Below the pieces are notes generated by a model. The model searched no databases. It had not been told where the DNA came from and saw only the letters and a program-made list of their open reading frames with translations. DNA of 56,623 nucleotides from a virus (Duplodnaviria > Caudoviricetes). Every line of letters begins with the position of its first letter. The first letter of the stretch is position 1. The stretch spans positions 1 through 56,623 of IMG/VR virus record IMGVR_UViG_3300036851_000701; one strand, 5' to 3'. Both the position numbers and the translations under genes were made by a program. Below, piece after piece: positions 7,268-28,141 of the stretch.

Positions 7268-7490
7268 ACGAACGGTGCGGGTGATCCGCACGTGGGACGT
7301 CGACGTCGACGCCGAGTACGGCGACAGCGACCGGCAGCTGCAGGGCAAGGTCAGCGAGGCGTACCTCGACGGCACGTCGCCGGACGCCGAGGACCGGCTG
7401 GTGATGCCGCACGCCGAGTCGCCGTACGCCAAGCACGGCGACATCCCCGCCACATCCGGCGACGAGCAGGAGGAAGTGGCATGGCGCTGA
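7260..7490 (+). CDS. Hypothetical protein (76 aa)
   Basis: RBS gaaaggg and ATG; part of a tightly packed operon. Confidence 0.65.
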   Translation: MAKRTVRVIRTWDVDVDAEYGDSDRQLQGKVSEAYLDGTSPDAEDRLVMPHAESPYAKHGDIPATSGDEQEEVAWR

Positions 7491-8152: not shown

Positions 8153-8157
8153 CCGGA

Positions 8158-12108: not shown

Positions 12109-15100
12109 GTGTCGTCGCAGGGCCAGGTCGGCGAGGCGTTCGTCCGCCTGGTGCTGGAGCCGGGCACCTTCGAGAGGGACCTCGACCGTGCCGTAGAGCA
12201 GGCGACCGCCGCGGTGCAGGCCGTCGTCGAGGTCCAGGCCGACGCCTCCGCGGTCGCCGAACAGGTCGAGGCCGCCGCCGCCGACGCCGCCCCGGTCGTC
12301 GAGGTAGACGCCGACGCGTCGGCGATACCGGCCGCCGTCGACGAGGCCGCCGCCCAGGCGCTGCCGATCGTCGACGTCGACGCGGACGTCGCTCCCGCGG
12401 AGGCGGCGCTCGCCCAACTGGAGGCGTCCGCTCCCGAGATCGAGGTCGAGGTCACGATCGACCCATCGACGGCGGCCGCGGACGTAGGGAATCTGTCGAC
12501 ACAGTTCGATCGGCTCGGCTCTGCCGCGGGCGCGGCCGGCGATGACCTCGACGTCGCCGGCAGGGCTACGTCCGGCCTGAACGTCGGTACCGGTCTCGCT
12601 CTCGGTTCTGTCGACGCCCTCGGCGACGTCGTAGGGAAGATGGGAGCGAAGGCGGCCGGCGCCGCCGGCGGGGTGATCGCCCTCGCCGGATTCACCCAGG
12701 AGTTGTTCACCAACGCGCTCGACGCCGAGGCGGCGACGTTCCGGTTCGAGCAGACACTCGGCGAAATGGCCGGCGCCGTCGAGCAGATCGACGTCGGCGG
12801 CCTGAACGAGTCGATCGGCGACCTGGCGCTGCGGCTCGGCTCCGGCGACGACGAGATCCGACAGGTCGTCGCCAGCTTCTTCGAGCTGGGCACCGCCTCC
12901 GGCCGCAGCGCCGGCCAGGTGGCCGAGTCGTCCGAGCAGCTCGTCGCCCTGGCGGCACGGGCGCGGGCGCTGAACCCGCAGCTCGGCTCGGTCGACCAGA
13001 TCGCCCAGTCGCTGCAGAGCAGCCTGGCCCGCGGCGGCCGCACCCTCGCCCAGTTCGGCATCTCACTCACGGCCGCCGAGATCGAGGCGAGGGCGCTCGC
13101 CGACACCGGCAAGGACACGAGCGACGAGCTGACCCAGTTCGACAAGGCGGCCGCCGGCGCCGCCATCGCCTCCGAGCGGCTGGGCGATAGCCTGGCGACC
13201 GACATCGCGAAGGGCGCCGAGAGCCCGGCGCTGGCGCTCGACAAGCTGACCACCCAGTTCTCAGAGTTCCTTGAAGGGATCGGCGCACCTCTAGTCGCCC
13301 CGATCCTCGACTTCCTCGAAGAACTGGAACCTATCGCCGAGGAGTTCGCCGGCACGCTCGGGGAGCTGCTCGAAGCGGTGGCGCCGCTCCTGCCGCCGCT
13401 CGGCACGTTCGCGCGGGTCTTCGTGCAGATCCACGCCGCCCCGATCAGGGCGGCCGCGGCGGCACTCGACTTCCTGGTCGGCGTCGTCACCGAGCTGGCC
13501 GACGCGTTCGGCTTCCTGCTCGACAAGACCGGCGTCATCGATCTCATCAGCAACGTCGCCGGCGCCGTCGGTGACGCCGCTGGCGCGGTCGGCGGGTTCT
13601 TCTCCGACATCGGCGGGGCGATCGGCGGCTTCTTCGACGACGGCGAAACCAAGATCGAACCGGTCCGGCAGATCTTCGACGACCTGGCCGGCACACTCAC
13701 GCTCACCACCGGCGAGGTGATCAAGTTCTCGGCAGCCGAGCAGGCCGCCGCCGAGGAGGCCGAGAGGCTGCACCGGCGGGTGCTCGACACCGACGTGGCG
13801 CTCGGCCGGCTGCGGCTCACGTCCCGCGACGTCGGCGACCTGCTCGGCGTCATCCGCGAGACCGGCGACGCCTCCACCGGGGCGCTCGAAGCGCTCGCGG
13901 TCGCCGCCGACGACGCCCAGCTAGCCCAGCAAGGCCTGCAGGACGTCGCCGACGTGCTCGGCGTCGACCTCGACGACCTCGAAGGGTTCATCTCCGACGT
14001 CACCGCCGCGATCGACGACCTGGCGTCACAGGCGACCGGCAGCCTGCCGTCGGCGTCGACCGCGATCGACGAGGTCGTCGAGGCGCTCGGCGGCATACCG
14101 GAGGCGCTCGACCCGCAGGCGGTGATCGACGCCCTGCAGCGGCAGATCGACGCCATCGCCGGGTTCCAGGCGAACCTGCAGCTGCTCGCCACGACCGTCG
14201 GCCCGAACCTGGCGGCGCTCGCCGCCGCTCAGGGGCCGCAGATCACCCAGGCGCTCGTCAACGGCATCACGCAGGGCGGCCCGGAGATCGCCGGCGCCCT
14301 GGAGGAGAGCCTCGGGGCGCTGCGGGCGCAGGGCGACGCGACGACCGACTTCATCAACGACGAGTTCTCGCCGCAGGTCGTCGAGGACCTCGGCGTCGTC
14401 GCCGACTCGATGTCGGAACGGTTCGAGGAGGGGTTCCAGATCGCGCCGACCGTCGAGCAGGAACTCGACGGGATCAGGACGTTCATCGAGCAGCACCCGC
14501 TGCCGTCGGCGTTCGAGGCGCTCGGCCTCGACATCACCGGCAGGTTCGGGGCCGCCACCGCGCCGATCGACCCGACGTTCCAGGCGCTGCTCGACGCGCT
14601 CGGCGTGCACGTCGAGAACGCCCCGCTGCCCGGCCAGGCCGACACCCTCGGCGGCGCCACCGCCGACGCGTTCGCCGGCGGGCTCGGCACCGTCGCCCCG
14701 GAGACCCAGGCGATCATCGACGGGCTCGGCCCGCTCGTCAACGGCGGGATCCCCGGCATGCAGGACGCCGGATTCAACCTCGGCGCCGGCATCGGCGACG
14801 GCATCGCCCAGTCGGCGTCGATCGTCGCCAGCCAGGTGCGCAGCGTCGTGCAGTCCGCGGAGTCGGCCGCCAAGGAGGCGGCCCACATCCGGTCGCCGTC
14901 GCAGCTGTTCGCCGACGAGATCGGCGTGCCGATCGCGCAGGGCATCGCCGAGGGCATCGACGCCGGCACGGCGACGATCGACCGCGCCCTGGCCGGCGCC
15001 CTCGCCGTCCCGAACGTGCCGGGCGCCGCCGGGACAGCCGGCGCCGGGATGGTCGTCAACCTGCAGGCGTCGGTGAACGTCAACGCCGCCGGGCTCGACG

Positions 15101-15207
15101 GCCGCGCCGCGTTCGACGCCGGCCGCGCCGTGCGCGACGGCCTGTTCGACGACCTGGAGGCGCAGCTCGACCGGCGGCTCGCCCGGTTCCTGGTGAGGGC
15201 GTCGTGA
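12109..15207 (+). CDS. Tape measure protein (1032 aa)
   Basis: Long Ala/Gly-rich helical ORF after the chaperones; N-terminal VGEAFVR and C-terminal I.SPS..F...IG..I..GIA.GI motifs. Confidence 0.92.
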   Translation: MSSQGQVGEAFVRLVLEPGTFERDLDRAVEQATAAVQAVVEVQADASAVAEQVEAAAADAAPVVEVDADASAIPAAVDEAAAQALPIVDVDADVAPAEAALAQLEASAPEIEVEVTIDPSTAAADVGNLSTQFDRLGSAAGAAGDDLDVAGRATSGLNVGTGLALGSVDALGDVVGKMGAKAAGAAGGVIALAGFTQELFTNALDAEAATFRFEQTLGEMAGAVEQIDVGGLNESIGDLALRLGSGDDEIRQVVASFFELGTASGRSAGQVAESSEQLVALAARARALNPQLGSVDQIAQSLQSSLARGGRTLAQFGISLTAAEIEARALADTGKDTSDELTQFDKAAAGAAIASERLGDSLATDIAKGAESPALALDKLTTQFSEFLEGIGAPLVAPILDFLEELEPIAEEFAGTLGELLEAVAPLLPPLGTFARVFVQIHAAPIRAAAAALDFLVGVVTELADAFGFLLDKTGVIDLISNVAGAVGDAAGAVGGFFSDIGGAIGGFFDDGETKIEPVRQIFDDLAGTLTLTTGEVIKFSAAEQAAAEEAERLHRRVLDTDVALGRLRLTSRDVGDLLGVIRETGDASTGALEALAVAADDAQLAQQGLQDVADVLGVDLDDLEGFISDVTAAIDDLASQATGSLPSASTAIDEVVEALGGIPEALDPQAVIDALQRQIDAIAGFQANLQLLATTVGPNLAALAAAQGPQITQALVNGITQGGPEIAGALEESLGALRAQGDATTDFINDEFSPQVVEDLGVVADSMSERFEEGFQIAPTVEQELDGIRTFIEQHPLPSAFEALGLDITGRFGAATAPIDPTFQALLDALGVHVENAPLPGQADTLGGATADAFAGGLGTVAPETQAIIDGLGPLVNGGIPGMQDAGFNLGAGIGDGIAQSASIVASQVRSVVQSAESAAKEAAHIRSPSQLFADEIGVPIAQGIAEGIDAGTATIDRALAGALAVPNVPGAAGTAGAGMVVNLQASVNVNAAGLDGRAAFDAGRAVRDGLFDDLEAQLDRRLARFLVRAS

Positions 15208-17645
15208 CGGCTTGGGACACCCAGCTGCCGGTGTCGCAGGGCCTGGAGTGGCACGCCATGCGCTCCGGGTTCGAGGCGCTCGACGGCGTCGGCGACTGCA
15301 TCGCGCAGACGTTCCGGTCCACCATCGCGGAGACGATCGCCCAGCTGAAGGTGTACGGGTCGTCGTCCGGCTCGGCGAACGGCGTGATCCTGGAGGTGTT
15401 CACGGCCGGCAGCGAGGTGGCGACCGGGCTGGCGACGACGCTGTTCGACCCGAACGGCCAGGCGAACGTCGGCGCCGGCGTGTTCTCGGCGTGCTCGCCG
15501 CACTACACGTGCCTGAACGGCGCCGGGATCGTGCACCTGCCGACCGGCAACTCGATCGACCTGGAGTACGGCACCGCCGGGGTCGCCGGCCGGGTCATCA
15601 ACCTCTCGGTGCAGGTCAAGATCCTCGGCACCGGCACCCTGTCGGTGTCCATGGTGCGGGTCTCCGACGGCGCGGTTAGGTCGCTCGGCGACTACCCCGG
15701 CTCCGGGATCCTGTGGTCCGGTCTCTCCGGCATCGACCCGCCGACGATCGTGATCCCGCTCGGCGAGATCAACCCGTTCACCGACCAGCCGTGGACCACC
15801 GCCGAGGTGCAGGGGTTCGATAACGCCACGTACCGGCTGCGGTTCCTGGCGACGACATCGGACCCGGCGATCGGCCTGAACCTGGCCCGCCTCAAGGTCG
15901 ACACCTGCACCGAGAACCGGCTCGTCCGCCGGCTGTTCGCCCCGGCGGCGGCGCCGACGTGGCACATCTGGGACGCCTACAAACCGGACGGCACCGCGCT
16001 GTGGGCGAAGGCCGCCAACGTCGACTACACGGTGGCGCTGCGCCACCCGCTCGGCGGGGTGATCACCTCAGGGGCGGTGTCGCGGTTCGCGCCGTTCTGG
16101 GCCGACTCGGCGGTGACGCCACCGCACGGCAAGAGCAGCTGGAAGCCGACCATCTCCGGGCTGCTCGCCAACGCCGCGGTGATCGTGTCGATGGGCTCGC
16201 CGCTGACCCGCGGCTACGCGGTGGCGCCGATCATCGTGACCAGCGGGAACGTGTCGAGGGACGGGCTGCCGTTCGCGAAGCTGGCAACGGTCGCGGTCGA
16301 CATCAACCAGCGCGCCCGGCAGGAGGTCACCGTCACCGGCGGGCCGGTCACCGTCGGGGCCATGTCGGTGATCTGCCGGCCGGAGCTGCCGCTATCGACG
16401 CCGCCGGTCGACCCGCTGCGGCTGGCGCTGCGCTCGGCCGTCGGCACCGGGCTGGCGGTCGCCGAGATCGGCGCCGTCGACTGGGCGAACGCCCCCGAGG
16501 AGGAGGCCGTCGTCGACGCCAACCCGAACGGCCTGCCGTGGAAGCGGGTCGTCGTACCGCTGAACACGACGGTGGCGCTCACCGACGCCACCCAGTACCG
16601 GCTGGAGGCGTCGAACTTCGCGCCGGTCGACGCCCCGTCGTGGGAGACGGCGTTCTTCTCGATCGAGGGGCTAACCAACAGCGGCGGGGCCGCCACCTAC
16701 ACCGGGGCCGCCGGCGGCGACGGCGCCACCGACCAGGGCTGGCTGCTGCTCGGCGCCTCCGAGATCCGGTCGACGTCCGACTACCCGTTCGAGGTGATGA
16801 CGCTCGCCCCGACGGTGACCGGGTTCACCGTCACCGAGGCGACGGCGCCGACGGCGGTGACCGGCACCGGGTTCTCGATCTGCGGCGAGGCGCCCGGCAC
16901 GGCAGCGATCCCGTACGCGCTGCTCGACTGGTCGCGCACCGCGCTCGGCTCCGACCCGGTGACCGGGTTCGCCTACTACGAGGTGCAGCGCCGCACCGCC
17001 TCCGACGACTGGCGGGTCGTCGGCCGGCTGTGCTGCGACCCGAACGGCGTCATCGACGAGAGCCGCACCGAGTGGCCCGACTACGAGGCGCCCCTCAACC
17101 GGCCGGTCACGTACCGGGTGCGGGTCGTGCGCAACGACGGCGGCATCGGCGGCTGGTCGGCGGAGAGGACCGTCACGCTGCGGGTCGACACCGACGTCGG
17201 CGTCGGCTACCAGACGTTCACGTCGAACCGCGACCCGACCCTGAACATGGCGTACATCGACGTGTACGCCGGCGACGAGGCGAACCGCGACTGGGAGTTT
17301 CTCGACGCCGCCCAGCACGCCTACGACGGCCTGTTCGGCGTCGACTACTGGGTGGACCTGCACGAGACGGAGCGCCGCGGCGTGCGGTTCACCCGCCGGC
17401 TGCTGTTGAACGCGGTCGCCGCCCCCGACGGCGAGCTGCGCGGCCTCAACCGGTTCCGCACGGTGCGCCGCCTGCAGGAGACGACCGTCCCGTACGTGTG
17501 CGTCCGTTCGAACGACGGCGACGTCGTCTACGGGTCGGTGGTCGTGCCGAACGGCCGCGAGCGGCAGCCGTCGCACCTGTACACGGCGACGGTGACGGTG
17601 ACGGAGACGACGGCGACGCCGACCGTCGAGACGGTGGCGCGGTGA
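15204..17645 (+). CDS. Minor tail protein (distal-tail-like)
   Basis: Follows the tape measure gene. D.EAP.N..V.YRV motif and an FN3-like segment near the C-terminus. Confidence 0.75.
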   Translation: MTAWDTQLPVSQGLEWHAMRSGFEALDGVGDCIAQTFRSTIAETIAQLKVYGSSSGSANGVILEVFTAGSEVATGLATTLFDPNGQANVGAGVFSACSPHYTCLNGAGIVHLPTGNSIDLEYGTAGVAGRVINLSVQVKILGTGTLSVSMVRVSDGAVRSLGDYPGSGILWSGLSGIDPPTIVIPLGEINPFTDQPWTTAEVQGFDNATYRLRFLATTSDPAIGLNLARLKVDTCTENRLVRRLFAPAAAPTWHIWDAYKPDGTALWAKAANVDYTVALRHPLGGVITSGAVSRFAPFWADSAVTPPHGKSSWKPTISGLLANAAVIVSMGSPLTRGYAVAPIIVTSGNVSRDGLPFAKLATVAVDINQRARQEVTVTGGPVTVGAMSVICRPELPLSTPPVDPLRLALRSAVGTGLAVAEIGAVDWANAPEEEAVVDANPNGLPWKRVVVPLNTTVALTDATQYRLEASNFAPVDAPSWETAFFSIEGLTNSGGAATYTGAAGGDGATDQGWLLLGASEIRSTSDYPFEVMTLAPTVTGFTVTEATAPTAVTGTGFSICGEAPGTAAIPYALLDWSRTALGSDPVTGFAYYEVQRRTASDDWRVVGRLCCDPNGVIDESRTEWPDYEAPLNRPVTYRVRVVRNDGGIGGWSAERTVTLRVDTDVGVGYQTFTSNRDPTLNMAYIDVYAGDEANRDWEFLDAAQHAYDGLFGVDYWVDLHETERRGVRFTRRLLLNAVAAPDGELRGLNRFRTVRRLQETTVPYVCVRSNDGDVVYGSVVVPNGRERQPSHLYTATVTVTETTATPTVETVAR

Positions 17646-18682
17646 CCGTCCTCGACCTGGAGGCGCCGCACCTGCCGCTCACCGTGCGGTTCCGGCTCGT
17701 CGACTCGCTCGGCAACCCGACGTCCGACGAGCTGCACCCGTCGGAGGAGCGGCCGCCGACGCTCACGAACGACACGGAGCGCACCCTGAAGCGCACCCTC
17801 ACCGGGCTGCTGCTGCCGCCCGCGGAGGCCGACGACCTCGACCCGCTCACGGCACGCGTGCAGCCGTACGTCTACGACGGTCAGGCGTCCTGGCCGCTCG
17901 GCGTGTTCCTGTTCGCCGACTACCCGCGGTCCCGCACCAGCGCCGGGCGGGCCGCGTCGGCGTCGCTCGTCGACCAGGGCCGCATCCTCGACCAGGACGT
18001 GACGACGGCGTTCAACGTCGCGCAGGGCGCCAACCTCGGCGGCGCCATCGCGGTGCTGCTCGACCGGTTCGGCATCTTCCGCCGGTCGATCGAGGGGACG
18101 AACACCGCCGCCGGGCAGGGCGGCCTGACGTGGCCGGCCGGCACGAAGGGCACCGTGATCGCCAACGAGCTGGCCCGCCAGTGCGGGTTCCTGCCGCTGT
18201 ACTGGGACAGCATCGGGATCGCCGTCGTGCGCACCGTGCCGGTGCCGGACGTGTCGACGCCGACGTTCGTGCTGCGCCGCAACGTCCGGGCGCGGACGGT
18301 GATCGAGGCGGACGTGCCGCTCGACGTGCCGAACACGTACGTGGTGATCGACAACGGCGTGACGGTCGCCCCGATCGTGGTCACCTACCGGGTGCCGGCG
18401 TCGGCGCCGCACAGCGTCAACAACCTCGGCTACGAGGTCACCCGCGTCATCCACGCCCAGGGGCTCGGCAGCACCGCCGCCGCGCTGCAGCTCGCCGCCG
18501 CCGCCGCCGACGAGGACATCCACGCCTACCAGCAGGTGAGCCTGCAGACGCCGCTCGACCCGCGGCACGACACGTTCGACGTCGTGCAGTGGGTCGGCAC
18601 CAACTACCTGGAGCGCCGCTGGACGGCGGTGCTGCACGCCCACGGCCCGATGCAGCACGACCTCGTGAGGATCTACCGGTGA
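17642..18682 (+). CDS. Minor tail protein (tail tip/hub-like, 346 aa)
   Basis: GTGA-coupled start; PLGVFL, D....L.Q and VPN..V motifs. Confidence 0.75.
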   Translation: MTVLDLEAPHLPLTVRFRLVDSLGNPTSDELHPSEERPPTLTNDTERTLKRTLTGLLLPPAEADDLDPLTARVQPYVYDGQASWPLGVFLFADYPRSRTSAGRAASASLVDQGRILDQDVTTAFNVAQGANLGGAIAVLLDRFGIFRRSIEGTNTAAGQGGLTWPAGTKGTVIANELARQCGFLPLYWDSIGIAVVRTVPVPDVSTPTFVLRRNVRARTVIEADVPLDVPNTYVVIDNGVTVAPIVVTYRVPASAPHSVNNLGYEVTRVIHAQGLGSTAAALQLAAAAADEDIHAYQQVSLQTPLDPRHDTFDVVQWVGTNYLERRWTAVLHAHGPMQHDLVRIYR

Positions 18683-19338
18683 GCGACCCGACCGCGCTCG
18701 CCGTCGCCGCCGCCGGCGGGGCCGTGCGCCGCGCCCGGTCGCTCGGCCAGCTCGCCGACCTGCCGCAGGGCACCGTCAAGTCGTACGACAACGCCACCGC
18801 GGTCGCGTTGGTCGTGATGGACGGCCCGGACATCGAGGCGATCCCGCTCGCCGTCGTGTGCGACACGCCGATCCCGGCCGGCGCCCGCGTGAAGTGCGCG
18901 CTCACCGAACCGCACGGCGGCGTCGTGCTCGGCGTCGTCGGCGGCTCCCCGCAGCACCTGCGCCACTCGACGGCCGGCGACGCGTCGCTCATCGGCACCG
19001 CTCTGACGGTGCGCGCCACCGTCGACGGCCCGACGTTCGACGGCGCGAAGGTCAGCGTCTCGTACTGGGGGGACGCGTCGGTGACCTGGACGAACGACGA
19101 CATCCTGTCGACGTTCTCGGAGGTGTCGCTCGACGACGGCGCCACCTGGCTCAACTCGCGGCAGCACATCAACCGCGGCACGACCGGCGTCGACAACTCC
19201 GACACCCACTCGTTCGGGTCGTTCGCCGAGGGGTCCGCCACCAAGGTCAAGGCCCGCCTGTCGACGACCACCACCGTGGGCGGCCGGGTGAGCCTGAGCA
19301 ACTTCATCCACCACCTGCTCGTCGTACCGGGGGTCTGA
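18679..19338 (+). CDS. Minor tail protein (219 aa)
   Basis: GTGA-coupled start; N-terminal GTV....V.MDG....P....P.G.RV pattern of tail-tip proteins. Confidence 0.65.
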   Translation: MSDPTALAVAAAGGAVRRARSLGQLADLPQGTVKSYDNATAVALVVMDGPDIEAIPLAVVCDTPIPAGARVKCALTEPHGGVVLGVVGGSPQHLRHSTAGDASLIGTALTVRATVDGPTFDGAKVSVSYWGDASVTWTNDDILSTFSEVSLDDGATWLNSRQHINRGTTGVDNSDTHSFGSFAEGSATKVKARLSTTTTVGGRVSLSNFIHHLLVVPGV

Positions 19339-19340
19339 CC

Positions 19341-21110
19341 ATGGCGTCCGTCTGCTTCTCGCCGATCTCGGCCGAGGTCGCCCGCTTCACCCGGCTCACC
19401 GACTGCGGCACCCCGGTGACGGGCGCCGGCGCGGCGGCCGTCGTCGACGGGTTCGTGGACGTGACCGTCGACGCCGACCGGCAGCCGGGCGGCACGTTCA
19501 ACCTGCGCGACGGCACCGGGCTCGTCGCGATATCGGGCGTCGACCCGGCCCAGACGACGACGTCGGACGTCACGATCACGGTGTGCACGCTCGACCCGGA
19601 GGCGCTCGCCCTGCTCGACGCCGCCGCCGTGGCGATCACGACGACCGGCGCCCCGAACGTCACCGGCTGCCCGATCCCGGTGACAGGCGCCCCCGCGGTC
19701 GGCGCCGCGTTCTCGACCCGCGGGCCGCTCGGCCCGGTCGCGGTCGAGCTGTGGCAGCCGCTCGCCGGCGAGAACGCCTGCGCCGGCGAGCCGTGCTGGT
19801 CGCGGTGGCTGCTGGCGCGCGTCGTCAACCTGCGGCGCACCGCCTTCGAGTTCGAGGACGACGCGTTCACGATCCGGCTGCGCGGCACGCTGCTCCACAA
19901 CCCCGGCTGGGGTCGAGGCGTCGGCGACTACCCGCGGGCGGTGCGCTCCGACGAGCCGGTGACGTTCGAGCGGATCTGCGCCGAACCGCCGCCGGCCGGC
20001 TGCGGGCTCGTCGCCGTCACCGGCTGCCCCGGCCACGACCCGTACGGCACCGTCCAGGTGCCCGGCACGTTCGCCACCCAGATCGCGAACCTCCAGGCGA
20101 AGGTCCGCGCCGGGCAGCTCGTCCAGGCGCTCGACCTGGGCGACTCGATCATGCAGGGCGCCTTCTCGTCGAACTGGCGGACCAAGAGCTTCATGGCGCT
20201 CGTCAACGACACGCTCGCCGGCACGCTCGGCGACGGCGGCGCCGGCATGCAGGGCGTCCAGAACGAGTGGCAGGCCGCCAGCTACCTGTCGTCGACCGGC
20301 GGCTGGCTCTTCGCCGGCGGCGGCGCTTCCGCGATGGTCGCCGCCAACCTGACCGCCGGGGCGACGATGACGTGGGCGAACCAGCGCGGCCGGTTCATCC
20401 GGGTCCACTACCAGTCGGCCACCAACACGGGGGTCATGACGGTGGCGATCGACGGCGGCGCCGCCGTGGCCGTCAACACGCAGGGCACGCCCCGCGACCG
20501 GGTCGTCCAGTTCGACGCCGGCTCGACCGGCGCCCACTCGGTGGTCGTGACCGCCCCGACCGCGACGCCGATCCTGCTCGCCGGCGTCGAGGGCAAGAAC
20601 GCGTCGGGCTGGCTGCACCACAACGACGCCGTCGCCGGCACCCGCTCGGACATGCCGCAGCTCGCCTCGCACGCCTCGGGCGGGTCGACGTACAAGGACC
20701 AGATCGTCGACGCCGCCCTGCGCATGATGGGCAGGATCGACGTGCTCTACTACACGTTCGGCAGCAACGACGCCGTGGTGGCGTTCACGCCGGCGACGTT
20801 CGAGCACAACGTGCTGACGACCCTCACCAGGGCACGCTCGTCGAACCCCGACATGGCGATCGTCGTCATCGTCGAGCACTCCGGGTCGATCCCGCAGGAC
20901 TTCCCGGTGTTCGCCGCGTTCCGCGAGATCCTCGAACGGCAGGCCCGCGCCCACGGCGCGGCGTTCGTCGACCTGTGGTCGGAGGGCGACCGCAGCCTGG
21001 CGTGGATGCAGGCCCGCGGCTACATGAACCCGGACAACGTGCACTGGACCGACGCCGGCCACGCGTGGGGGGCGGCGATCATCCTCCGGGCGTTCCAGGC
21101 CGTCGGCTAG
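19341..21110 (+). CDS. Tail-tube paralog fused to an SGNH/GDSL esterase (589 aa)
   Basis: The N-terminal ~225 aa align by eye with 2923-3600. The C-terminus has SGNH blocks LGDSIMQG, NDAVAG, FGSND and DNVHW. Confidence 0.85.
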   Translation: MASVCFSPISAEVARFTRLTDCGTPVTGAGAAAVVDGFVDVTVDADRQPGGTFNLRDGTGLVAISGVDPAQTTTSDVTITVCTLDPEALALLDAAAVAITTTGAPNVTGCPIPVTGAPAVGAAFSTRGPLGPVAVELWQPLAGENACAGEPCWSRWLLARVVNLRRTAFEFEDDAFTIRLRGTLLHNPGWGRGVGDYPRAVRSDEPVTFERICAEPPPAGCGLVAVTGCPGHDPYGTVQVPGTFATQIANLQAKVRAGQLVQALDLGDSIMQGAFSSNWRTKSFMALVNDTLAGTLGDGGAGMQGVQNEWQAASYLSSTGGWLFAGGGASAMVAANLTAGATMTWANQRGRFIRVHYQSATNTGVMTVAIDGGAAVAVNTQGTPRDRVVQFDAGSTGAHSVVVTAPTATPILLAGVEGKNASGWLHHNDAVAGTRSDMPQLASHASGGSTYKDQIVDAALRMMGRIDVLYYTFGSNDAVVAFTPATFEHNVLTTLTRARSSNPDMAIVVIVEHSGSIPQDFPVFAAFREILERQARAHGAAFVDLWSEGDRSLAWMQARGYMNPDNVHWTDAGHAWGAAIILRAFQAVG

Positions 21111-21119
21111 CCTGCGGCC

Positions 21120-22001
21120 GTGGCGACGCGGACGGTGACGCTCGACGACCTGTCGGAACCGGCGCCGCCGCCGTCCGACGCCGACTGGAACGACGCCGGC
21201 GTGGTGGTGCTGGCCGGCCTGCTCGACGACGAGCTGGTCGCCGACTACCAGGACGAATGGAGGCAGGCGAACGGCTGGCACGGCTGCCGGCTGCGCTCGG
21301 ACCCCGGCGCCCTCTACCACCTGCCGGTCGGCGTCGCAGGCGAGCCGTGGGTGCTCGACGCGGACCGCCCCGGCGGCTGGCCCGACTGCACCCCCTATCG
21401 CCGTTACGACGCCCTCGCCCGGATCTGCTGTCACCCGCTCGTCGGCGCCGTGCTCCACGACCTGATCGGCGAGCCGGCCGCCGTGCACCTGAACCTCACC
21501 GGCTGGGAGTCCACCGGGCGCGACTGGCACCAGGACACCTACCTGAACGAGCCGGAGGTCGGCGACGCCTACGCCGCCGTCTGGTTCGCGCTCGGCGACG
21601 TGCACCCCGGCTCGGGGCCGTTCCAGTACGTGCCGGGCTCCCACCGCTGGCACGTCCTGCAGCGCGACCGGTTCGCCGGCCTGCTCGACCTGGACGACCC
21701 GGACTGGCCGGCCCGGTCGGAGGCGATCCTGGCGCCGCTCGTCGCCGCCGAGGTCGAGCGGCGCGGCGCCGCCGTCGTCGACTACCTGCCCCGCAAGGGC
21801 GACGTCCTGTTCTGGCACGGCCGGCTCTACCATCGTGGGTCGAAGCCGACGCTGCCGCACGCCTACCGGCCGTCGCTCATCGCCCACTACAGCGGCGTCC
21901 ACCACCGGTCGGCGATGCCGGCCGCGGTGAAGCACGACGCCGGCGGCTGGTACTTCCCGCTCGGCGGCGAGGCAGGCGTCGAGGGCAACACCGGCCGATA
22001 G
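21120..22001 (+). CDS. Phytanoyl-CoA dioxygenase (PhyH)-family Fe(II)/2OG oxygenase
   Basis: WHQD, W.AL.DV....GP..YVPGSH and KGDVLFWHG.L.HRG motifs. Confidence 0.9.
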   Translation: MATRTVTLDDLSEPAPPPSDADWNDAGVVVLAGLLDDELVADYQDEWRQANGWHGCRLRSDPGALYHLPVGVAGEPWVLDADRPGGWPDCTPYRRYDALARICCHPLVGAVLHDLIGEPAAVHLNLTGWESTGRDWHQDTYLNEPEVGDAYAAVWFALGDVHPGSGPFQYVPGSHRWHVLQRDRFAGLLDLDDPDWPARSEAILAPLVAAEVERRGAAVVDYLPRKGDVLFWHGRLYHRGSKPTLPHAYRPSLIAHYSGVHHRSAMPAAVKHDAGGWYFPLGGEAGVEGNTGR

Positions 22002-22006
22002 CCGAC

Positions 22007-22714
22007 GTGGCGAACCCCGGCGAACCGCTCGTCGAGCTGCACCACTTCTACCACTGCTACGCGGCCGGCGACTGGGCGCAGGCCGTCACCGAGCACTGCG
22101 ACGCCCTGACCCGCTTCGGGCTCTACGACCGTCTCGCGTCGCTGCACGTCGGGTTCGTCGGCACCGACGAGCAGGTCGCAGCCGTGCGCTGCACGCTCGA
22201 CGTGCTCACCCCCGACTACCGGGTGTGCGCCCAGACCGAGGCGGGCTGGGAGCAGGTCACCCTCACGGCGCTGCACGAGTTCGTCCAGGACCACGACGGG
22301 CTCGTCTCGTACGCCCACACGAAGGGGGCGTCGCGGGTCGACCCGGTCGACGGGCCGTGGCGCCGGTCGATGGAGTACTACAACTTCGTCGACTGGCGAC
22401 GCCCGGCGGCCGCGCTGGCGTTCGATAACGCGCTGGTCGCCGGCTGCCACTGGACGCACGGGACGCTGATCGAGTGGTACGGCGACTCCGGCGACAGCCA
22501 GCTGGTCGCCGGGCAGGGCACATCTGGCTGGTTCGGCGGCAACTACTGGTGGGCGCGCTGCGAGGTCCTGCGCCGGAACGTGCCGCCGGAGCCGGACACC
22601 CGCCACCACGCCGAGCACTGGATCGGGCTGATCTCGGGGATGGTGCCGTTCGAGCACGGCTCCGTGTTCGATCTGAACCCCGGGCCGGTCGGGAACTTTA
22701 AGGTCGATTGGTGA
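22007..22714 (+). CDS. Putative glycosyltransferase-like protein (235 aa)
   Basis: E..TL, Y.HTKG, WR..M.Y, F.GN.WWA and R..AE.WI motifs seen in viral glycan-cluster proteins (RgpF-like). Function inferred from context. Confidence 0.55.
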   Translation: MANPGEPLVELHHFYHCYAAGDWAQAVTEHCDALTRFGLYDRLASLHVGFVGTDEQVAAVRCTLDVLTPDYRVCAQTEAGWEQVTLTALHEFVQDHDGLVSYAHTKGASRVDPVDGPWRRSMEYYNFVDWRRPAAALAFDNALVAGCHWTHGTLIEWYGDSGDSQLVAGQGTSGWFGGNYWWARCEVLRRNVPPEPDTRHHAEHWIGLISGMVPFEHGSVFDLNPGPVGNFKVDW

Positions 22715-23457
22715 TCGTCGAGACGTGGGTGACGGTCCACGACCAGGACCTGGTGGCGGCGTGCGAGCGGGACGGCCGCTTCGCCGGCCTCCCGAACGTC
22801 GGCTATCTGTTCGTCGGCCCCCGACCCGTCGACCGGCTGCCGGCCGGCACGCGGCTGCTCGTCGCCCGCGACCACCCGCCGCACCACGAGGACCTGCCGC
22901 ACTTCTACGACCTGACGGGCTGGCACGTCCTCGCCCGCCGCGCCGCCGCCGACCATCTGGTGTGCGTCCAGTACGACATGCGCCCGTTCGCCGCGGGTCT
23001 GGCGGGCCGGGCGGTCGAGCTGCTCGCCGACGTCGACGTGGTGGCGTTCACCCCCGCCGGGTTCGGCCCGAACTGGATGCTGCTCATCGACGGGTTCGAG
23101 GACGCCTGGCGGCGGGGCATGGCCGCCGTCGGCGCCGATCCCGACCGGTGGCCGCCGTTCGACGTCTGGCCGACCACGGCCGGCACCGCCTGGCGGCGGG
23201 AGGCGTTCGTCGAGTTCCTGGCGTGGTTCGAGCCGCTGTTCGCCGTGTGGGCCGCCGACCGGTGGGCGGGGCACCTGGCCGAACGGTCGCTTCACGGCTG
23301 GCTGAGCGACACCGGTCGGACGGCCGGCTACCTGCCGGGGGTGGTCGAGCACGAGCGGGCCGACTGTCACGGCACGGGGGCGCTGATGCGCGGCGAGCGC
23401 GACGTCTACGAGGCGAGGGACCGCGAGTTCCGGTACCAGTCCTCGTACGGGCCGTAG
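22708..23457 (+). CDS. Putative glycosyltransferase-like protein
   Basis: QYD and GH.AER motifs, GT-A-like layout, glycan-cluster context. Confidence 0.5.
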   Translation: MVIVETWVTVHDQDLVAACERDGRFAGLPNVGYLFVGPRPVDRLPAGTRLLVARDHPPHHEDLPHFYDLTGWHVLARRAAADHLVCVQYDMRPFAAGLAGRAVELLADVDVVAFTPAGFGPNWMLLIDGFEDAWRRGMAAVGADPDRWPPFDVWPTTAGTAWRREAFVEFLAWFEPLFAVWAADRWAGHLAERSLHGWLSDTGRTAGYLPGVVEHERADCHGTGALMRGERDVYEARDREFRYQSSYGP

Positions 23458-24005
23458 CCGGCGGCGACGACGTCCTCGACGACCCGCTCGAACCCGGCGG
23501 CCGACAGCCGGCGGTGGATGGCGTCCTTGCGGTCGGGGCCGTCGCGGTACAGGTTGTGCTCGACGGTGACGAGCCGGACGTGCCAGCGGTCGAAGTCGAT
23601 CCCGTCGAGCACGTGCAGCTCGTGGCCCTCGACGTCGACCGACAGGTAGTCGACCACGGCCGGCGCGGCGGCGTCCTCCAGGAAGCGAGAGAGCGTGTCG
23701 GCGGTCGTCAGCCGGGCGGCCGCGTCGACGCTCACCGCGATCCCGTCGAACGGGAGGGCGACGGCCCGGTCGGAGGCGAGGGCGCACACGCAGGTCGACC
23801 CCGACCGGCTGGCGGCGAGCCGCCGGTGGGCGTCCGGGTTGGGTTCGACGCACAGCCCGGACCAGCCGTAGTCCCGTTCCAGGGCGAGCGTGTTCGAGTG
23901 CTCGACGCCGTCGTAGGCGCCGACGTCGACGAACCAGCCGCCGCGCAGCCCGCCGAGCTGCTCGACCACCCAGGCGTCCTGCCCGGCCTGGGCGTGCCAG
24001 GTCAC
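23406..24005 (-). CDS. FkbM-family O-methyltransferase (199 aa)
   Basis: Q.GQD, FVDVGAYDG...SNT..LE....W.G..VEP and DYLSVDVEG.E..VL.G.DF motifs. GTG start coupled to the upstream stop. Confidence 0.93.
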   Translation of the reverse strand: MTWHAQAGQDAWVVEQLGGLRGGWFVDVGAYDGVEHSNTLALERDYGWSGLCVEPNPDAHRRLAASRSGSTCVCALASDRAVALPFDGIAVSVDAAARLTTADTLSRFLEDAAAPAVVDYLSVDVEGHELHVLDGIDFDRWHVRLVTVEHNLYRDGPDRKDAIHRRLSAAGFERVVEDVVAAGYGPYEDWYRNSRSLAS

Positions 24006-24958
24006 AGGATCCGGCCGGCGAGCGCCTCGACGTCGGCGGCGAACCGGCCGGCCACTGACCGGTAGAGGGCCTCGGCGTGCGCCTGCCAGCGATCGTAGTT
24101 GTCGAGCACGTCGCGCAGCCGCACGTGGGGCCAGACGGCGACGTGCGAGTGACCGTGCCGGAACATCGACGCCTCCGATACGAGCGCCGGTCGGCGGGCG
24201 GCGATCAGGTAGTCGAACGCCGACGACAGGCCGGCGTCGGGCTGGCCGGGGTGGTAGAGCAGGCAGCACACGTCGCAGGCGGCGAGCATGCCGACGACCT
24301 CGACCTCGGGCTGATGGGCGAGGGTCTGGACGATCCGGATGCCGGGCTTGGCGGCGGCCGCCTGCCGGGCGGCGTCGAGGATCGCCGGGGCGTATAGCGG
24401 GCCGCCGGCGGCACCGTTGAAGTACGCCTCCGGGGTGTGCAGCCTGACGACGGCTGCGTCGACGGCGTCGGCTACCTCGGCGGCGACCTGGTCGAACCCC
24501 TTGTGCGGGAACGCGAACCCGAACGAGGCGATCTCCGGCGGGTCGTTTCGCCAGCGGGGTACCTGCGGCGGCGAGTCCGGCAGCGGCCGGCTGACGCCGT
24601 GCACCCGGTCGCCGTCGCCGACGCCCGGTTCGAGGACCAGGACGTGGTCGAACCCGCGGGCGAGGAGCCCGTCGGCGAGCGGGCGCAGCGTCGCCGGCTC
24701 GTAGTTGTGGAGCACCGCCAGCGTCGGGCAGCCCTCGCGCCCGGGCGTCAGCCATGGCATCAGGTCGGCCCGGTAGTTGACGACCACGACGTCCGGCTCG
24801 ACGACGGCCAGGCTCCTGCGGTAGTCGTCGCCGTCGCCGCAGTCGGCGTGCGCTACGCCGAGGAGTCCCTCGGAGAGGCGGGCGGCCATCCGCAGGCCGA
24901 GGTCGTGGATGCCGCACACCGGCGAGTGGGCGTGGTCGACGACCAGGACCCGGGTCAC
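24002..24958 (-). CDS. GT-B fold (GT4-like) glycosyltransferase (318 aa)
   Basis: CGI.D.G near the N-terminus, SFGFAFPHKGF, and SSA....IAA.RP..VS. Confidence 0.75.
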   Translation of the reverse strand: MTRVLVVDHAHSPVCGIHDLGLRMAARLSEGLLGVAHADCGDGDDYRRSLAVVEPDVVVVNYRADLMPWLTPGREGCPTLAVLHNYEPATLRPLADGLLARGFDHVLVLEPGVGDGDRVHGVSRPLPDSPPQVPRWRNDPPEIASFGFAFPHKGFDQVAAEVADAVDAAVVRLHTPEAYFNGAAGGPLYAPAILDAARQAAAAKPGIRIVQTLAHQPEVEVVGMLAACDVCCLLYHPGQPDAGLSSAFDYLIAARRPALVSEASMFRHGHSHVAVWPHVRLRDVLDNYDRWQAHAEALYRSVAGRFAADVEALAGRIL

Positions 24959-26187
24959 GCCCCTATGACCTGGAACTGCGGGCACGGCACGAGGAGGCGG
25001 CCGCCGGCGGCCAGGTAGCCGGCCTCGCGGCGCCGGAACTCGGCGATGAAGTGCCAGGGCAGGACGAGCAGGTAGTCGGGGCGGGCGGCGCGCATGTCGG
25101 CCTCGGCGACGATCGGGATGTCGGTGCCGACGGTGCGGAGCCCCCACTTCTGTTCCTGCCGCTCGGCGATCGCGGTGACCAGCGTCGAGTCGAGCCCGAA
25201 GTACTGGAGCAGCGTGTTGCCCTTGGTGGAGGCGCCGTATCCCCAGACGGTCTCGCCGCGCCGGCGGGCGTCTCGGACGAACCCGACGACCTGATCGCGG
25301 AGCGCTTCGAGCCGCCGGGCGAACGCCTGCCAGATCTCGATGCCGTTGTAGCCGCCGCCCAGCTCGTGGGCGTACAGCGAGTCGAGCCGCATCCGGGCGA
25401 CGTCGCGCTGCGGCTGGGTGCCGTAGCCGGCGGGGTCGGCGTCGTCGCGCTGGCACAGCAGCCGGATCGAGCCGCCGTTGACGTCGTTGAGCTGGGCGTC
25501 GACGATCCGGAACCCGGCCTGCCCGAGGGTGCGGTGGAGGGTGTGGAGCGTGTAATAGCGGGCGTGCTCGTGGCAGACGTTGTCGAAGGCGAGCTGCTGG
25601 ATCATGAGCGGCGTGTACGAGAGCTGGACGACGAACAGCCCGTCGTCGGCGAGCAGCCCGCGGACGGCTTCGAGGAACTTGGCGGGGTCGGCGAGCTGGT
25701 AGAGCATGGCGATGCATGTGACGACCTTGGCGCGGCCGAAGCCGGCTCGGATCTGGTCGGCTATCGCCTCGGTGAACGGTTCCTGGACGACGAGGTCGGC
25801 GATCTGTTCGCACTCGTAGCGGAACGAATCGTCGGCCGGGTCGACGCCCACCAGGTAGGGACGATAGGCGGCCAGCGTCATGTCCTCGACGGCCCCCAGG
25901 AGCGTCCCGTCGTTCGACGCGACGTCGACCCACAGGTCGCCGACCTCGACCGATACGACGTCGAGGGTCGAGGCGACGACGTCGGCGAGCGCCCGCCGCA
26001 TGCTCTCGTTGGTACCGGACCGGTACCAGTAGCGGCCCCACATCAGCTCGGGCGGCGGCTGCTCCGACAGGTGCACGAGCCCGTCCGGGTCGCGCACGAG
26101 TTCGAGCGGGAACCGCCCAGCCCTCGGCTCCTCGCCGGGCGCCAGGAAGTCGGACACGTACAGGTCGCCGAGCGAGAGCAGCCGCAT
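24955..26187 (-). CDS. NDP-hexose C3-methyltransferase (TcaB9/KijD1-like), lacking the Zn-binding Cys motifs
   Basis: Y.YRSG, D.ASNDG.LL, FDN.CHEH..YY, NGGSIR, YGASTKGNTLL and PDYLLVLPWHF motifs. Confidence 0.92.
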   Translation of the reverse strand: MRLLSLGDLYVSDFLAPGEEPRAGRFPLELVRDPDGLVHLSEQPPPELMWGRYWYRSGTNESMRRALADVVASTLDVVSVEVGDLWVDVASNDGTLLGAVEDMTLAAYRPYLVGVDPADDSFRYECEQIADLVVQEPFTEAIADQIRAGFGRAKVVTCIAMLYQLADPAKFLEAVRGLLADDGLFVVQLSYTPLMIQQLAFDNVCHEHARYYTLHTLHRTLGQAGFRIVDAQLNDVNGGSIRLLCQRDDADPAGYGTQPQRDVARMRLDSLYAHELGGGYNGIEIWQAFARRLEALRDQVVGFVRDARRRGETVWGYGASTKGNTLLQYFGLDSTLVTAIAERQEQKWGLRTVGTDIPIVAEADMRAARPDYLLVLPWHFIAEFRRREAGYLAAGGRLLVPCPQFQVIGA

Positions 26188-26195
26188 CGCCGTCG

Positions 26196-26218
26196 ATGGT
26201 AGGCGGCGCGTCTACCGT
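26196..26218. promoter_or_regulatory. Back-to-back -10 elements for divergent, probably leaderless or short-leader glycan genes
   Basis: TACCAT (minus strand) and TACCGT (plus strand) lie 8-9 nt before the two ATGs in a 40-bp gap with no SD sequence. Confidence 0.45.
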
Positions 26219-26227
26219 GGGCGCGCG

Positions 26228-27277
26228 ATGGTCGTCTACTGCTACCCGGCCGACGCGTACGGGTGCGGCCACTACCGGGTGCGCTGGCCGGCGGCGGCGG
26301 CCGCCGCGCACGGCGTCGACGTGCACGTCAAGGAACCCCGCGAGTCGGGGATCGGCGGCCTCGCCGTCGGCGGGAAGCTATCGACGATCTACGCGCCCGC
26401 CGACGCCGACGTGATCGTGTTCCAGCGGCCGTCGAACGGCATCCTCGCCCAGGCGGTGCCGCTGCTCCGGGCGCAGGGCATCGCGGTCGTCGTCGACGTG
26501 GACGACGACCTGGCGAACATCCACCCGGCGAACCCGGCGTTCCGGCACCTGCACCCGAAATGGAACCCGGCCAACAACTGGCGGCACGTCGCCTCCGCCT
26601 GCCGGCACGCCACGCTCGTGACGGTGTCGACGGCGGCGCTCGTGCCGCGCTACGCGGCGCACGGCCGGGTGCGGGTGCTCGACAACTACGTGCCAGCCCG
26701 GTTCCTGGACGTCGAGCGCCCGGTCCACGACGAGCCGTGGGTCGGCTGGGCCGGGTCGATGCACTCGCACCCGGACGACCTGCGGCCGGCGGCCGGCACG
26801 CTCGGCCAGCTCGCCCGGCAGGGCCGGCGGGTGCACGTCGTCGGCGACGGCGTCGGCGTCGACCGCGAGATCGGCAGCGACGCCTACACCTCCACCGGCG
26901 TCGTCGACTTCCAGGACTGGATGCCGCGGGTCGCCGAGCTGGACGTGGCGGTGGCGCCGCTCGCGGACACGGCGTTCAACCAGGCGAAGTCGCGGCTGAA
27001 GCCGCTGGAGTACTCGGCGGTCGGGGTGCCGTGGGTAGCGTCGCCGACCCGCGAGTACGCCCGGCTGGCGGCGACCGGCGCCGGCGCCACCGCGGTGCGT
27101 CCCCGCGACTGGCTGAGGGAGCTGCGCCGGCTGCTCGACGACGACGGCTACCGCGCCGAACGCTCGGCCGTGGCCCGTGCAGTGGCGGCCGACAACACGA
27201 TCGAGGCGCACGGCTGGCGGTGGCAGGAGGCGTGGCAGGCCGCCTACGAGATGGAGCACCCGAGGGTCACCGCCTGA
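26228..27277 (+). CDS. GT4-like glycosyltransferase
   Basis: GCGHYR, FQR, D.DD.L, VTVST..L, GW.GS..H..DL and APL....FN..KS.LK.LEY...G.P motifs. Confidence 0.9.
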   Translation: MVVYCYPADAYGCGHYRVRWPAAAAAAHGVDVHVKEPRESGIGGLAVGGKLSTIYAPADADVIVFQRPSNGILAQAVPLLRAQGIAVVVDVDDDLANIHPANPAFRHLHPKWNPANNWRHVASACRHATLVTVSTAALVPRYAAHGRVRVLDNYVPARFLDVERPVHDEPWVGWAGSMHSHPDDLRPAAGTLGQLARQGRRVHVVGDGVGVDREIGSDAYTSTGVVDFQDWMPRVAELDVAVAPLADTAFNQAKSRLKPLEYSAVGVPWVASPTREYARLAATGAGATAVRPRDWLRELRRLLDDDGYRAERSAVARAVAADNTIEAHGWRWQEAWQAAYEMEHPRVTA

Positions 27278-27403: not shown

Positions 27404-28141
27404 GTGGCCTGGCGGCTCGCCGAGAGCCTGCGGGCGCTGCGGGCCGAGTGCGACGCCGCCGCCCCGGACCGATCGAAGGCGAGCGACGGCACGATCGGCG
27501 ACGCGGCGCACGCCGCCTCCCGGTCGGACCACAACCCGAACGCCGACGGCGTGGTATGCGCCCTCGACATCACCCACGACCCCGACGGCGGCGCCGACTG
27601 CCACGCGTGGGCCGAGCGGGTGCGCACCGGCGGCAACCCCAACCTGAAGTACATCATCTTCGCCGGCCGCATCGCATCTATCACCCGCGGGCTGGAATGG
27701 CGTCCGTACGGCGGCCGAAACCCGCACCGCAATCACATGCACGTCTCGGTCGGCCGCGGCGAGGACGGCCGATCGACCGGCCCGTACGACGACGCCGGTT
27801 CGTGGGGCATCTCCTCGGCTGCTCCGGTGCCGGCCCCCCCTTCGCCGGAGCCGGAGCAGCCGGCGGACCAGGCGCCGCCGTTCCCGCTGCCGCAGGGCTG
27901 GTACTTCGGGCCGCGCTCCGGGCCGCAGCAGTCGGTGTCCGGGTTTCACGGCCACGGCGACGACCTCGCCGTCTGGCAGCAGCGCATGGCCGACCGCGGC
28001 TGGCCGATCGCCGTCGACGGCCGCTACGGCAACCAGACCAGGGGCGTGGCCGAGGCGTTCCAGCGGGAGAAGGGCCTCGACGTCGACGGCCTCATCGGAC
28101 CGATTACCTGGCGGGCGGCGTGGACCGAACCGATCACGTAG
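27404..28141 (+). CDS. Endolysin: Zn-peptidase-like domain plus peptidoglycan-binding domain
   Basis: WRLA.SL..LR, SDGTIGD..H....SDHNP, A.DITH and H..H.H.S motifs. The C-terminal WQ.......DG.YG..T......FQ...GL.VDG.IGP.TW matches PG_binding_1. Confidence 0.9.
   Translation: MAWRLAESLRALRAECDAAAPDRSKASDGTIGDAAHAASRSDHNPNADGVVCALDITHDPDGGADCHAWAERVRTGGNPNLKYIIFAGRIASITRGLEWRPYGGRNPHRNHMHVSVGRGEDGRSTGPYDDAGSWGISSAAPVPAPPSPEPEQPADQAPPFPLPQGWYFGPRSGPQQSVSGFHGHGDDLAVWQQRMADRGWPIAVDGRYGNQTRGVAEAFQREKGLDVDGLIGPITWRAAWTEPIT

Follow-up and report, generated by a model that had tools for sequence, protein, structure and literature searches.

The virus record IMGVR_UViG_3300036851_000701 (56,623 bp; its whole length is referred to here as the window) encodes, at 19341..21110 on the + strand, a 589-residue protein, P0001, in which a tail-tube-family domain is fused through a linker to an Ape1-like SGNH esterase. 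The reading that we favor, with reasonable though far from complete confidence, is that P0001 is a minor tail protein that forms its own tube-like ring in or next to the tail-tip complex, with the Ape1-like O-acetylesterases directed outward. Residues 1–228 (19341..20024, +) constitute a complete domain of the major-tail-protein (tail-tube) family according to phrog_792, phmmer, AlphaFold2 (AF2) modeling and structural comparison (VIA); residues 229–262 (20025..20126, +) comprise the linker and the N-terminal helix of the esterase module (242–256 in the model); and residues 263–589 (20127..21107, +) correspond to an SGNH esterase with an inserted β-sandwich, matching phrog_15881, annotated as ‘tail protein’. 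The identities and folds of the domains, the catalytic motifs, the conservation of the fusion, the position of the gene and the rarity of the architecture were all established computationally.

The N-terminal domain belongs to the tail-tube family

The resident major tail (tube) protein of the phage is P0002 (225 residues; 2923-3600, +), and residues 1–228 of P0001 align with it from end to end (BLASTP E 2e-13; with tblastn, residues 3–225 against 3–226, E 5.7e-15). In a global MAFFT alignment, the tube domain of P0001 and P0002 are collinear and share 30% identity, and the alignment of the two proteins stops exactly at the P0002 C terminus. This is in agreement with the original prediction, which described the first ~225 residues as collinear with the protein at 2923-3600, and the motif pairs that it quoted are indeed in register (CGTPVTGA/CGVPVTGA, CTLDP/CVIDP, TGAP, ELWQ/EVWQ...AC, WGRG/WGNG and PPPA..GCG). 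Both proteins match the phrog_792 profile (‘major tail protein’), with residues 1–225 of P0001 covering profile positions 1–227 at E 8.3e-17, and P0002 scoring E 5.6e-38. A total of 770 phage isolates match P0002, once per genome, and ‘major tail protein’ is the annotation in 69 of the 70 matching isolate rows listed (30/30 and 39/40).

A phmmer search of 1.84 billion representatives with residues 1–235 returned 212 relatives at E ≤ 1e-3, mostly stand-alone proteins of ~220 residues. Among the 149 representatives listed, 96 are 195–262 residues long, 15 are shorter, 32 have 263–399 residues and 6 at least 400. When the ten longest were compared with Pfam, seven carried PKD, FN3 or Ig domains C-terminal to the tube domain and three had nothing; none of the ten showed an esterase. 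Judged from sequence, this pattern of length and Ig-like decoration is as expected for tail-tube proteins. Furthermore, of 28 columns with at least 70% conservation among 97 stand-alone members of the family, P0001 retains 22; true members retain 24 in the median and never fewer than 19.

The AF2 model of P0001 has a predicted local distance difference test score (pLDDT) of ~90 over residues 1–230. When residues 1–214 of the predicted model were compared with solved siphophage tube proteins (VIA), Z scores of 9.2–12.1 were obtained, with 147–174 aligned residues at a root-mean-square deviation (rmsd) of 3.4–4.4 Å. The best match was JBD30 (8rk3_f; Z 12.1, rmsd 4.1 Å, 171 aligned), followed by 8xkn_B (Z 11.3), the YSD1 major tail protein (6xgr_A; Z 10.9, rmsd 3.9 Å, 157 aligned), Douge (8zdj_S; Z 9.7) and Bxb1 (9d93_Ja; Z 9.2); lambda (8k36_A) and SPP1 scored Z ~7.5. 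The tube fold that had been anticipated for the N terminus is thus what the model predicts. At the level of sequence, a profile of 98 tube-family members found one chance-level match only among the PDB sequences (E 0.68). Taken together, these results support, with the fold as a prediction, the assignment of P0001 residues 1–228 as a full tail-tube-family domain.

Four cysteine columns of the family (22, 63, 82 and 147 in P0001 numbering) are conserved in 71–75% of the 97 members and are accompanied by a C-terminal PPP..CG motif. Cys63 has been lost in P0001 and in its ortholog P0155 (see below), which retain the other cysteine columns. Disulfides or other cross-links in the tube are conceivable.

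The tube domain is predicted to self-associate and forms a divergent lineage

Complex prediction with three copies of residues 1–235 gave a score of 0.54 (runs 0.56, 0.11 and 0.54), and the best of three controls scored 0.00. In calibration, 20 of 30 proteins with structures solved as one-chain pairs attained the 0.54 mark, compared with 1 of 23 whose structures are single chains; the present prediction differs from that calibration in using our own alignment and three copies. The runs share at least 56% of their contacts, the partner pLDDT is at least 60, and association takes place via edge strands. The prediction supports a side-by-side self-association of the kind that tube subunits undergo.

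A maximum-likelihood tree was calculated from 142 tube domains, with the 15 representatives shorter than 195 residues excluded and the others trimmed to 240 residues. In it, P0001 and P0155 are united in one clade with full support in the Shimodaira–Hasegawa-like approximate likelihood ratio test (SH-aLRT 100). No other inner branch is as long as the one that leads to this clade (0.92; the median is 0.085), and P0002 is not its sister but groups with P0016 and with the tube protein of G001, the nearest relative of the phage. Since the clade is set on a long branch and P0002 is placed elsewhere, the fused tube domain represents an old divergent lineage rather than a recent copy of the resident gene.

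The C-terminal module resembles the two-domain esterase Ape1

The esterase module contains the SGNH blocks in the expected set. Block I is GDS at residues 267–269 with the nucleophile S269 (20139..20147, +; invariant in 7 of 7 modules and in P0155), block II is represented by the glycine G433 (20637..20639, +; invariant in 7 of 7), block III by GSND at residues 474–477 (20760..20771, +; N476 and D477 invariant) and block V by DNVH at residues 565–568 (21033..21044, +; D565 and H568 invariant). S269, G433, N476, D565 and H568 are thus invariant in the seven-sequence alignment of the module, and the Pfam family Lipase_GDSL_2 (PF13472) is matched above its cut-off of 32.9 bits, with a score of 49.1. 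The inserted β-sandwich (approximately residues 302–431; 20244..20633, +), which lies between blocks I and II, is CBM35/CE2_N-like: its strands are present in the model, CE2_N is matched weakly in P0001 and its homologs, and the segment aligns with the insert of Ape1. The catalytic set GDS, GSND and DNVH with an inserted β-sandwich, as originally proposed, is therefore upheld by the invariant residues, by Pfam and by the block order I-sandwich-II-III-V.

Folded alone with the seven-sequence alignment, residues 236–589 yielded a model with pLDDT 76.9 and a predicted template modeling score (pTM) of 0.80. This model matches Ape1 over both domains (4k3u_A: Z 26.7, rmsd 3.1 Å, 308 of 354 residues aligned; 8gkd_A: Z 25.8), and the next structural match is limited to the SGNH domain (Z 17.2). 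Foldseek likewise returned Ape1 with TM scores of 0.72/0.73 and E 2.5e-17, against ~0.3 for the CE2 enzymes, in which the sandwich is placed differently. The modeling supports the assignment of residues 236–589 as a complete SGNH esterase of the Ape1 two-domain topology. The family phrog_15881, ‘tail protein’, contains the esterase module (E 7.9e-17), and the predicted structure identifies these ‘tail proteins’ as likely Ape1-like esterases.

The fusion is encoded in one frame and conserved in an ortholog

P0001 is translated as 589 residues without an internal stop, and the coding signal in the G+C content at third codon positions (GC3) stays in this frame from ~19426 to 21110. There is no in-frame stop at the domain junction, and codons 196–275 contain no slippery heptamer of the type X_XXY_YYZ. 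The ATG follows the TGA stop of the gene upstream by 2 nt and has in front of it the sequence GGGGG, a weak ribosome-binding site compared with the strong one of P0002 (AGGAGGAG); P0001 appears to be translationally coupled to this upstream tail-tip gene.

The ortholog P0155 (593 residues), encoded on a different contig of 51.5 kb, matches both PHROGs families and shares 51% identity with P0001 over 597 aligned columns that comprise both domains and the linker. By part, the identity is 58.8% for the tube domain (133/226), 48.5% for the linker and 48.9% for the esterase (158/323), and the tube domain is hence the better conserved half. In addition, a Logan contig from a soil-metagenome run covers window positions 18600-20987 with 0 differences and spans the junction; as the run probably derives from the same source sample, the contig is independent with respect to the assembler only. 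The search of sequencing runs found one DNA run, probably the source sample, and listed no RNA run.

These data bear directly on the possibility that P0001 arose by chimeric assembly or by the joining of two genes through a frameshift, to which we give hardly any credence. The exact protein is found in one record only, which would favor an artefact, but P0155 is collinear through the junction, the coding signal is continuous in a single frame, and the second assembler produced an identical sequence. The ortholog, the coding signal and the second assembly refute the artefact for practical purposes, and we take the fusion to be genuine and, as its conservation suggests, under selection.

The architecture is apparently rare

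A word-based protein search with full-length P0001 returned P0001 itself only, and residues 236–589 found two weak relatives; P0155 was recovered only by a profile of the esterase module. The search for further tube and SGNH combinations that had been suggested for this protein thus produced a second case. Among the 149 tube-family representatives listed there is no match to the esterase part, and 0 of 770 isolate genomes have a second tube copy or a P0001-type enzyme. The same holds for 15 related virus records, i.e., all those of at least 40 kb among 43 loci found through the head protein, none of which has a second tube copy or the esterase: 14 contain one tube-type match and one contains none. 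Pattern scans of viral, genome and metagenome contig collections, based on P0001 or on P0001 and P0155, revealed no further fusion locus, although this absence is weak evidence since two to six short patterns were used per scan. Scans with the neighboring tail-tip proteins found no locus, and scans with the esterase module found one locus in a metagenome-assembled genome and one viral locus. In the openly searchable full-text literature, i.e., outside subscription journals and supplements, no fusion of a tube protein with an esterase was encountered. With two sequences known, the tube-esterase architecture appears genuine but rare. The unusual part is that a second, divergent, full-length tube paralog carries a catalytic module.

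P0001 is part of an exchangeable tail-tip cassette

The window begins and ends with an exact direct repeat of 127 bp (1-127 and 56497-56623), and since these repeats are terminal it represents a circularly closed phage assembly, i.e., the whole IMG/VR virus record. Its G+C content is 72-74%, and the best reading is that the phage is a siphophage of a high-G+C actinobacterium from soil. A megablast search with positions 1-25000 found no close DNA relative among phage isolates.

Gene order was derived from frame-specific GC3 analysis and PHROGs matches. The major head protein (102-1733, in a gene that wraps the record ends) and a phrog_779 protein (1780-2697) are followed by P0002, which is placed at the position typical of the tube gene in this lineage, after the head genes, as in Gordonia phage GTE6, Microbacterium phage MementoMori and G001. 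Further downstream are ~5.8 kb of genes to which no function is assigned, a head-tail adaptor that ends at 10513, a Neck1/tail completion protein (11032-11406), two small chaperone-like ORFs (open reading frames) and the tape measure protein (1032 residues; 12109-15207, +), which is homologous to its G001 counterpart. No second tube candidate is present between the neck gene and the chaperones, as judged from the ORFs of the window and PHROGs. Following the tape measure, the tail-tip genes encode proteins of 813 (15204-17645, +), 346 (17642-18682, +; a phrog_1887 tail protein) and 219 residues (18679-19338, +), and P0001 (19341-21110, +) is the fourth. The gene position from which the original prediction derived a probable site near the tip is thereby confirmed, since P0001 belongs to the tail-tip gene block after the tape measure.

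In G001, the head protein is 59%, the tube protein 45% and the tape measure 37% identical to that of the present phage, and the adaptor, neck and chaperone genes are conserved. The block 15204-22001, consisting of the three tail-tip ORFs, P0001 and a PhyH-type dioxygenase, has no homolog in G001. In other relatives, the tape measure is succeeded by distant homologs of the 813- and 346-residue proteins, and these by different genes. Since G001 lacks the block and the relatives vary after these homologs, P0001 is regarded as part of an exchangeable tail-tip cassette.

To the right of this block, two ORFs of 235 and 249 residues at 22007-23457, to which no function is assigned, are 82% and 80% identical to their G001 counterparts; these values greatly exceed the 59% of the head protein and the 45% of the tube protein and reveal an abrupt mosaic break at the cassette's right edge. 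Within it, the 813-residue protein has distant homologs in four related loci (25–34% identity over the C-terminal part), and MementoMori encodes an 834-residue ‘minor tail protein’ at the equivalent position; the 813-residue protein may combine Dit-like and other functions. It has no PHROGs match, a features search of the ESM Atlas gave sub-threshold leads only (0.79), and the 219-residue protein matches nothing in Pfam, NCBIfam or PHROGs.

Three other regions of the window were noted. At 3612-9387, approximately seven ORFs over ~5.8 kb, including one of 673 residues at 3863-5884, separate the tube gene from the head-tail adaptor, whereas the two are adjacent in G001, GTE6 and MementoMori. The inserted ORFs that were scanned gave no PHROGs, Pfam or NCBIfam match below E 1e-3 (one chance-level PHROGs match, E 0.006), and no match in the relatives compared. 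A cluster for the modification of glycans or small molecules occupies 21120-27277, directly after the tail genes, and comprises the PhyH-type dioxygenase (21120-22001), an FkbM-type methyltransferase (23406-23789, −), a C-methyltransferase (24955-26187, −) and a group-1 glycosyltransferase (26228-27277). In the related G003, one methyltransferase and two glycosyltransferases are likewise encoded behind the tail genes (L058:5807-9026), and such clusters call to mind the glycosylation of virions in mycobacteriophages. The ORF at 27404-28141 is endolysin-like and has PG_binding_1 as its C-terminal domain; the ORFs scanned included no esterase of the lysin B type, a hint that the host may lack a mycolic-acid layer.

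Proposed role of P0001 and alternative explanations

We infer that P0001 is incorporated in the virion, and we likewise infer the stoichiometry of the ring, its distal position and the substrate. The tube paralog domain would build a dedicated ring, probably hexameric, that would become part of the tail-tip complex, either at the distal tube end or beside it, and would not be scattered along the tube. The C terminus of the tube subunit is expected to point outward, and the ring would therefore display one Ape1-like module per subunit, with Ser269, Asp565 and His568 as putative catalytic residues and Gly433 and Asn476 as putative oxyanion residues. On contact with the cell, the module would bind the wall glycan with the help of its β-sandwich of carbohydrate-binding type, and the SGNH esterase would remove O-acetyl (or other O-acyl) groups. 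Peptidoglycan bearing O-acetyl groups, on which Ape1 acts, is one possible substrate and a polysaccharide of the wall or capsule the other, and deacylation would open the way for a binding step or a step of muralytic penetration. A more specific version, in which a six-fold distal ring of Ape1-type O-acetylesterases strips peptidoglycan or overlying wall glycan under the tip and thereby licenses the muralytic and DNA-ejection steps, is put forward tentatively and is possible rather than probable.

Several observations weigh against the ring. Five residues conserved across the family are missing from the fused clade, among them Pro159 and Pro194, which are almost invariant, and its very long branch could equally mean that it is no longer part of a tube. 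One of the three complex runs scored 0.11, and the passing score may reflect likeness to solved tube rings; any such memory would be at the level of fold only, since the tube family has no sequence-level relative in the PDB (best E 0.68). With regard to the enzyme, the loops at P0001 residues 432–453 and 560–567 are of low confidence in the catalytic model, the full-length AF2 model falls below pLDDT 50 at residues 251–334 in the SGNH core, structure-based identity to Ape1 is only 16–18%, and a phmmer search of the PDB sequences with residues 236–589 found nothing at E ≤ 0.1. In view of this identity and of the missing PDB match, an Ape1-like substrate specificity is no more than a possibility; moreover, SGNH folds include acyltransferases, and SsfX3 is among the Foldseek matches. 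Neither Dit nor Tal was identified in the tail-tip block, where the 813- and 346-residue proteins have no Pfam or NCBIfam match and the latter matches only the generic ‘tail protein’ family phrog_1887. Finally, the phage is known solely as a metagenome contig.

P0001 might instead co-polymerize at low frequency with P0002 along the whole tail, in the manner of the extended forms SPP1 gp17.1* or lactococcal TpeX, giving a tail with scattered esterases that would be active during scanning of the cell surface by the phage. Such an arrangement would suit a family in which C-terminal appendages are normal (7 of the 10 longest relatives) and a protein that keeps 22 of 28 conserved columns in its better conserved half; extensions of the major tail protein with carbohydrate-binding modules are, moreover, documented for 936 phages in the accessible part of PMC6669499. 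A co-polymer should, however, co-evolve with its partner, and in the tree P0001 is found on the inner branch of greatest length and not as the sister of P0002; the gene travels with the swapped tail-tip cassette, whereas P0002 is 45% identical to its G001 equivalent. In addition, the known extended forms are produced from the same gene by frameshifting, while P0001 has a separate gene with no slippery site, and a second tube gene occurs in 0 of the 15 related records. On balance we consider this explanation unlikely.

Quite improbable, in our judgment, is a role of the tube-like domain as a mere anchor that lies outside any channel ring and docks single or trimeric esterase ‘fibers’ on the baseplate or the tube. 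The domain would then replace the short N-terminal anchors of other phrog_15881 proteins, and the module does occur behind unrelated N-terminal regions of ~200 residues (P0154 and Samy gp28) and ~60 residues (L055:7800-9041), because of which the N terminus can be said to behave as an exchangeable anchor; the long branch and the loss of nearly invariant prolines point the same way. Nevertheless, the domain covers the complete length of a tube protein, the two orthologs resemble each other more closely in it than in the enzyme (58.8% vs 48.9%), and its self-association through edge strands is predicted. An enzyme that plays no part in entry seems very improbable to us. It would act on the phage's own products, for instance by editing O-acyl groups on virion-protein glycans possibly added by the neighboring enzymes, or at lysis, in the breakdown of the wall at release, and the dioxygenase, methyltransferases and glycosyltransferase directly downstream, followed by the endolysin-like gene, and the similar arrangement in G003 fit this idea. 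Yet the annotation that the module family has received in isolates is tail or tail fiber, P0001 has neither a signal peptide nor a linkage to lysis genes, and fusion to a structural tube domain together with coupling to tail-tip genes is hard to explain for a soluble enzyme.

Implications

The glycan-directed enzymes of phages are known to be mounted on spikes, fibers and hubs, and binding modules on tube and Dit rings. P0001 would represent a third route, in which a duplicated or acquired tube subunit is reused as an enzyme scaffold. If the ring model is true, it implies a six-fold, axis-centered display of O-acetylesterases and points to de-O-acetylation of the actinobacterial wall as an entry step. 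If the more specific six-fold version holds, P0001 would be without precedent both as a catalytic paralog of the tail-tube protein and as a peptidoglycan de-O-acetylase carried by the virion, in a ring cassette that moves between phages with the remaining tail tip. For annotation, P0001 emphasizes that a ‘major tail protein’ match in a minor-tail region need not mark the tube gene.

Comparison with known systems

Within the phrog_792 family of actinophages (GTE6 gp23, MementoMori gp26), the N terminus of P0001 is a full-length member, and its appendage is C-terminal as in the decorated members. P0001 differs in that it is a second copy beside the resident gene, lies in the tail-tip cassette, belongs to a long branch and has as its appendage, instead of an Ig-like adhesin, a catalytic esterase of two domains. 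A role as the major tube subunit is ruled out, as P0002 holds the tube-gene position of the lineage after the head genes.

Dit proteins, which combine a tube-like belt with a galectin-type domain, are encoded immediately downstream of the tape measure. Gene order and the sequence homology to the tube protein itself speak against P0001 being a Dit. The closest functional analogy that we found, in the available portions of PMC7048315, is Tal (gp59) of Staphylococcus phage 80alpha/phi11, a tail-tip protein that has an N-terminal gp27-like hub and a C-terminal SGNH/GDSL esterase, and thus shares with P0001 a tube-fold N terminus, an SGNH C terminus and, as proposed here for P0001, a place at the tail tip. 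Each chain of the trimeric 80alpha Tal contains two tube folds, the Tal gene directly follows that of Dit, and those portions of PMC7048315 describe no inserted β-sandwich of the Ape1 type in its SGNH domain. P0001, in contrast, has one tube domain, which is homologous in sequence to the major tail protein, and its gene is the fourth after the tape measure. With a single 228-residue tube domain and three ORFs between the tape measure and P0001, a Tal-type hub is ruled out.

Ape1 is a periplasmic housekeeping enzyme of Gram-negative bacteria and not a virion protein. The enzymes from Neisseria meningitidis (4k3u) and Campylobacter jejuni (8gkd/8gld) share with P0001 the SGNH core with the β-sandwich after block I. 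Among phages, gp28 of Streptomyces phage Samy, a phrog_15881 member, contains a module 26.5% identical to P0001 residues 266–582; its annotation is that of a tail fiber protein related to PhiC31 gp49 and to PDB 4K7J. The N-terminal anchors of phrog_15881 members are, unlike that of P0001, unrelated to tube proteins.

Extended tube proteins are known from SPP1, where gp17.1* is the product of a frameshift. Tube-fold rings with carbohydrate-binding modules are also described, in the excerpts of PMC6669499, as TpeX of the lactococcal 936 group and as ‘evolved’ Dit rings. The appendages of such extended tube and ‘evolved’ Dit proteins bind rather than catalyze, and they come from the tube or Dit gene itself, in contrast to the separate paralog P0001. 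A frameshift product of the gp17.1*/TpeX type was rejected for P0001, which has a separate gene 15.7 kb off, in a single frame and with no slippery heptamer. A precedent for two tube-type genes is provided by the ‘two major tail proteins’ of the actinophage clusters EL, DJ, AM, AU, AW, BI and CC, as described in the accessible parts of PMC11080557 and PMC10652937; in Damascus (cluster EL), the two tube genes, gp17 and gp19, are close together near the capsid gene (PMC11080557, same parts). The comparison with P0001 is by description, and these parts mention no enzyme fusion.

The original prediction knew of no described phage with the architecture of P0001. This holds in part only: a tube fold together with an SGNH enzyme is known from 80alpha Tal (PMC7048315, in the portions cited), and C-terminal decoration is common in the tube family, but a divergent full-length tube paralog with a catalytic module is unusual. 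P0001 combines two known kinds of protein, the decorated tube protein and the tail-tip SGNH enzyme, and introduces no new principle.

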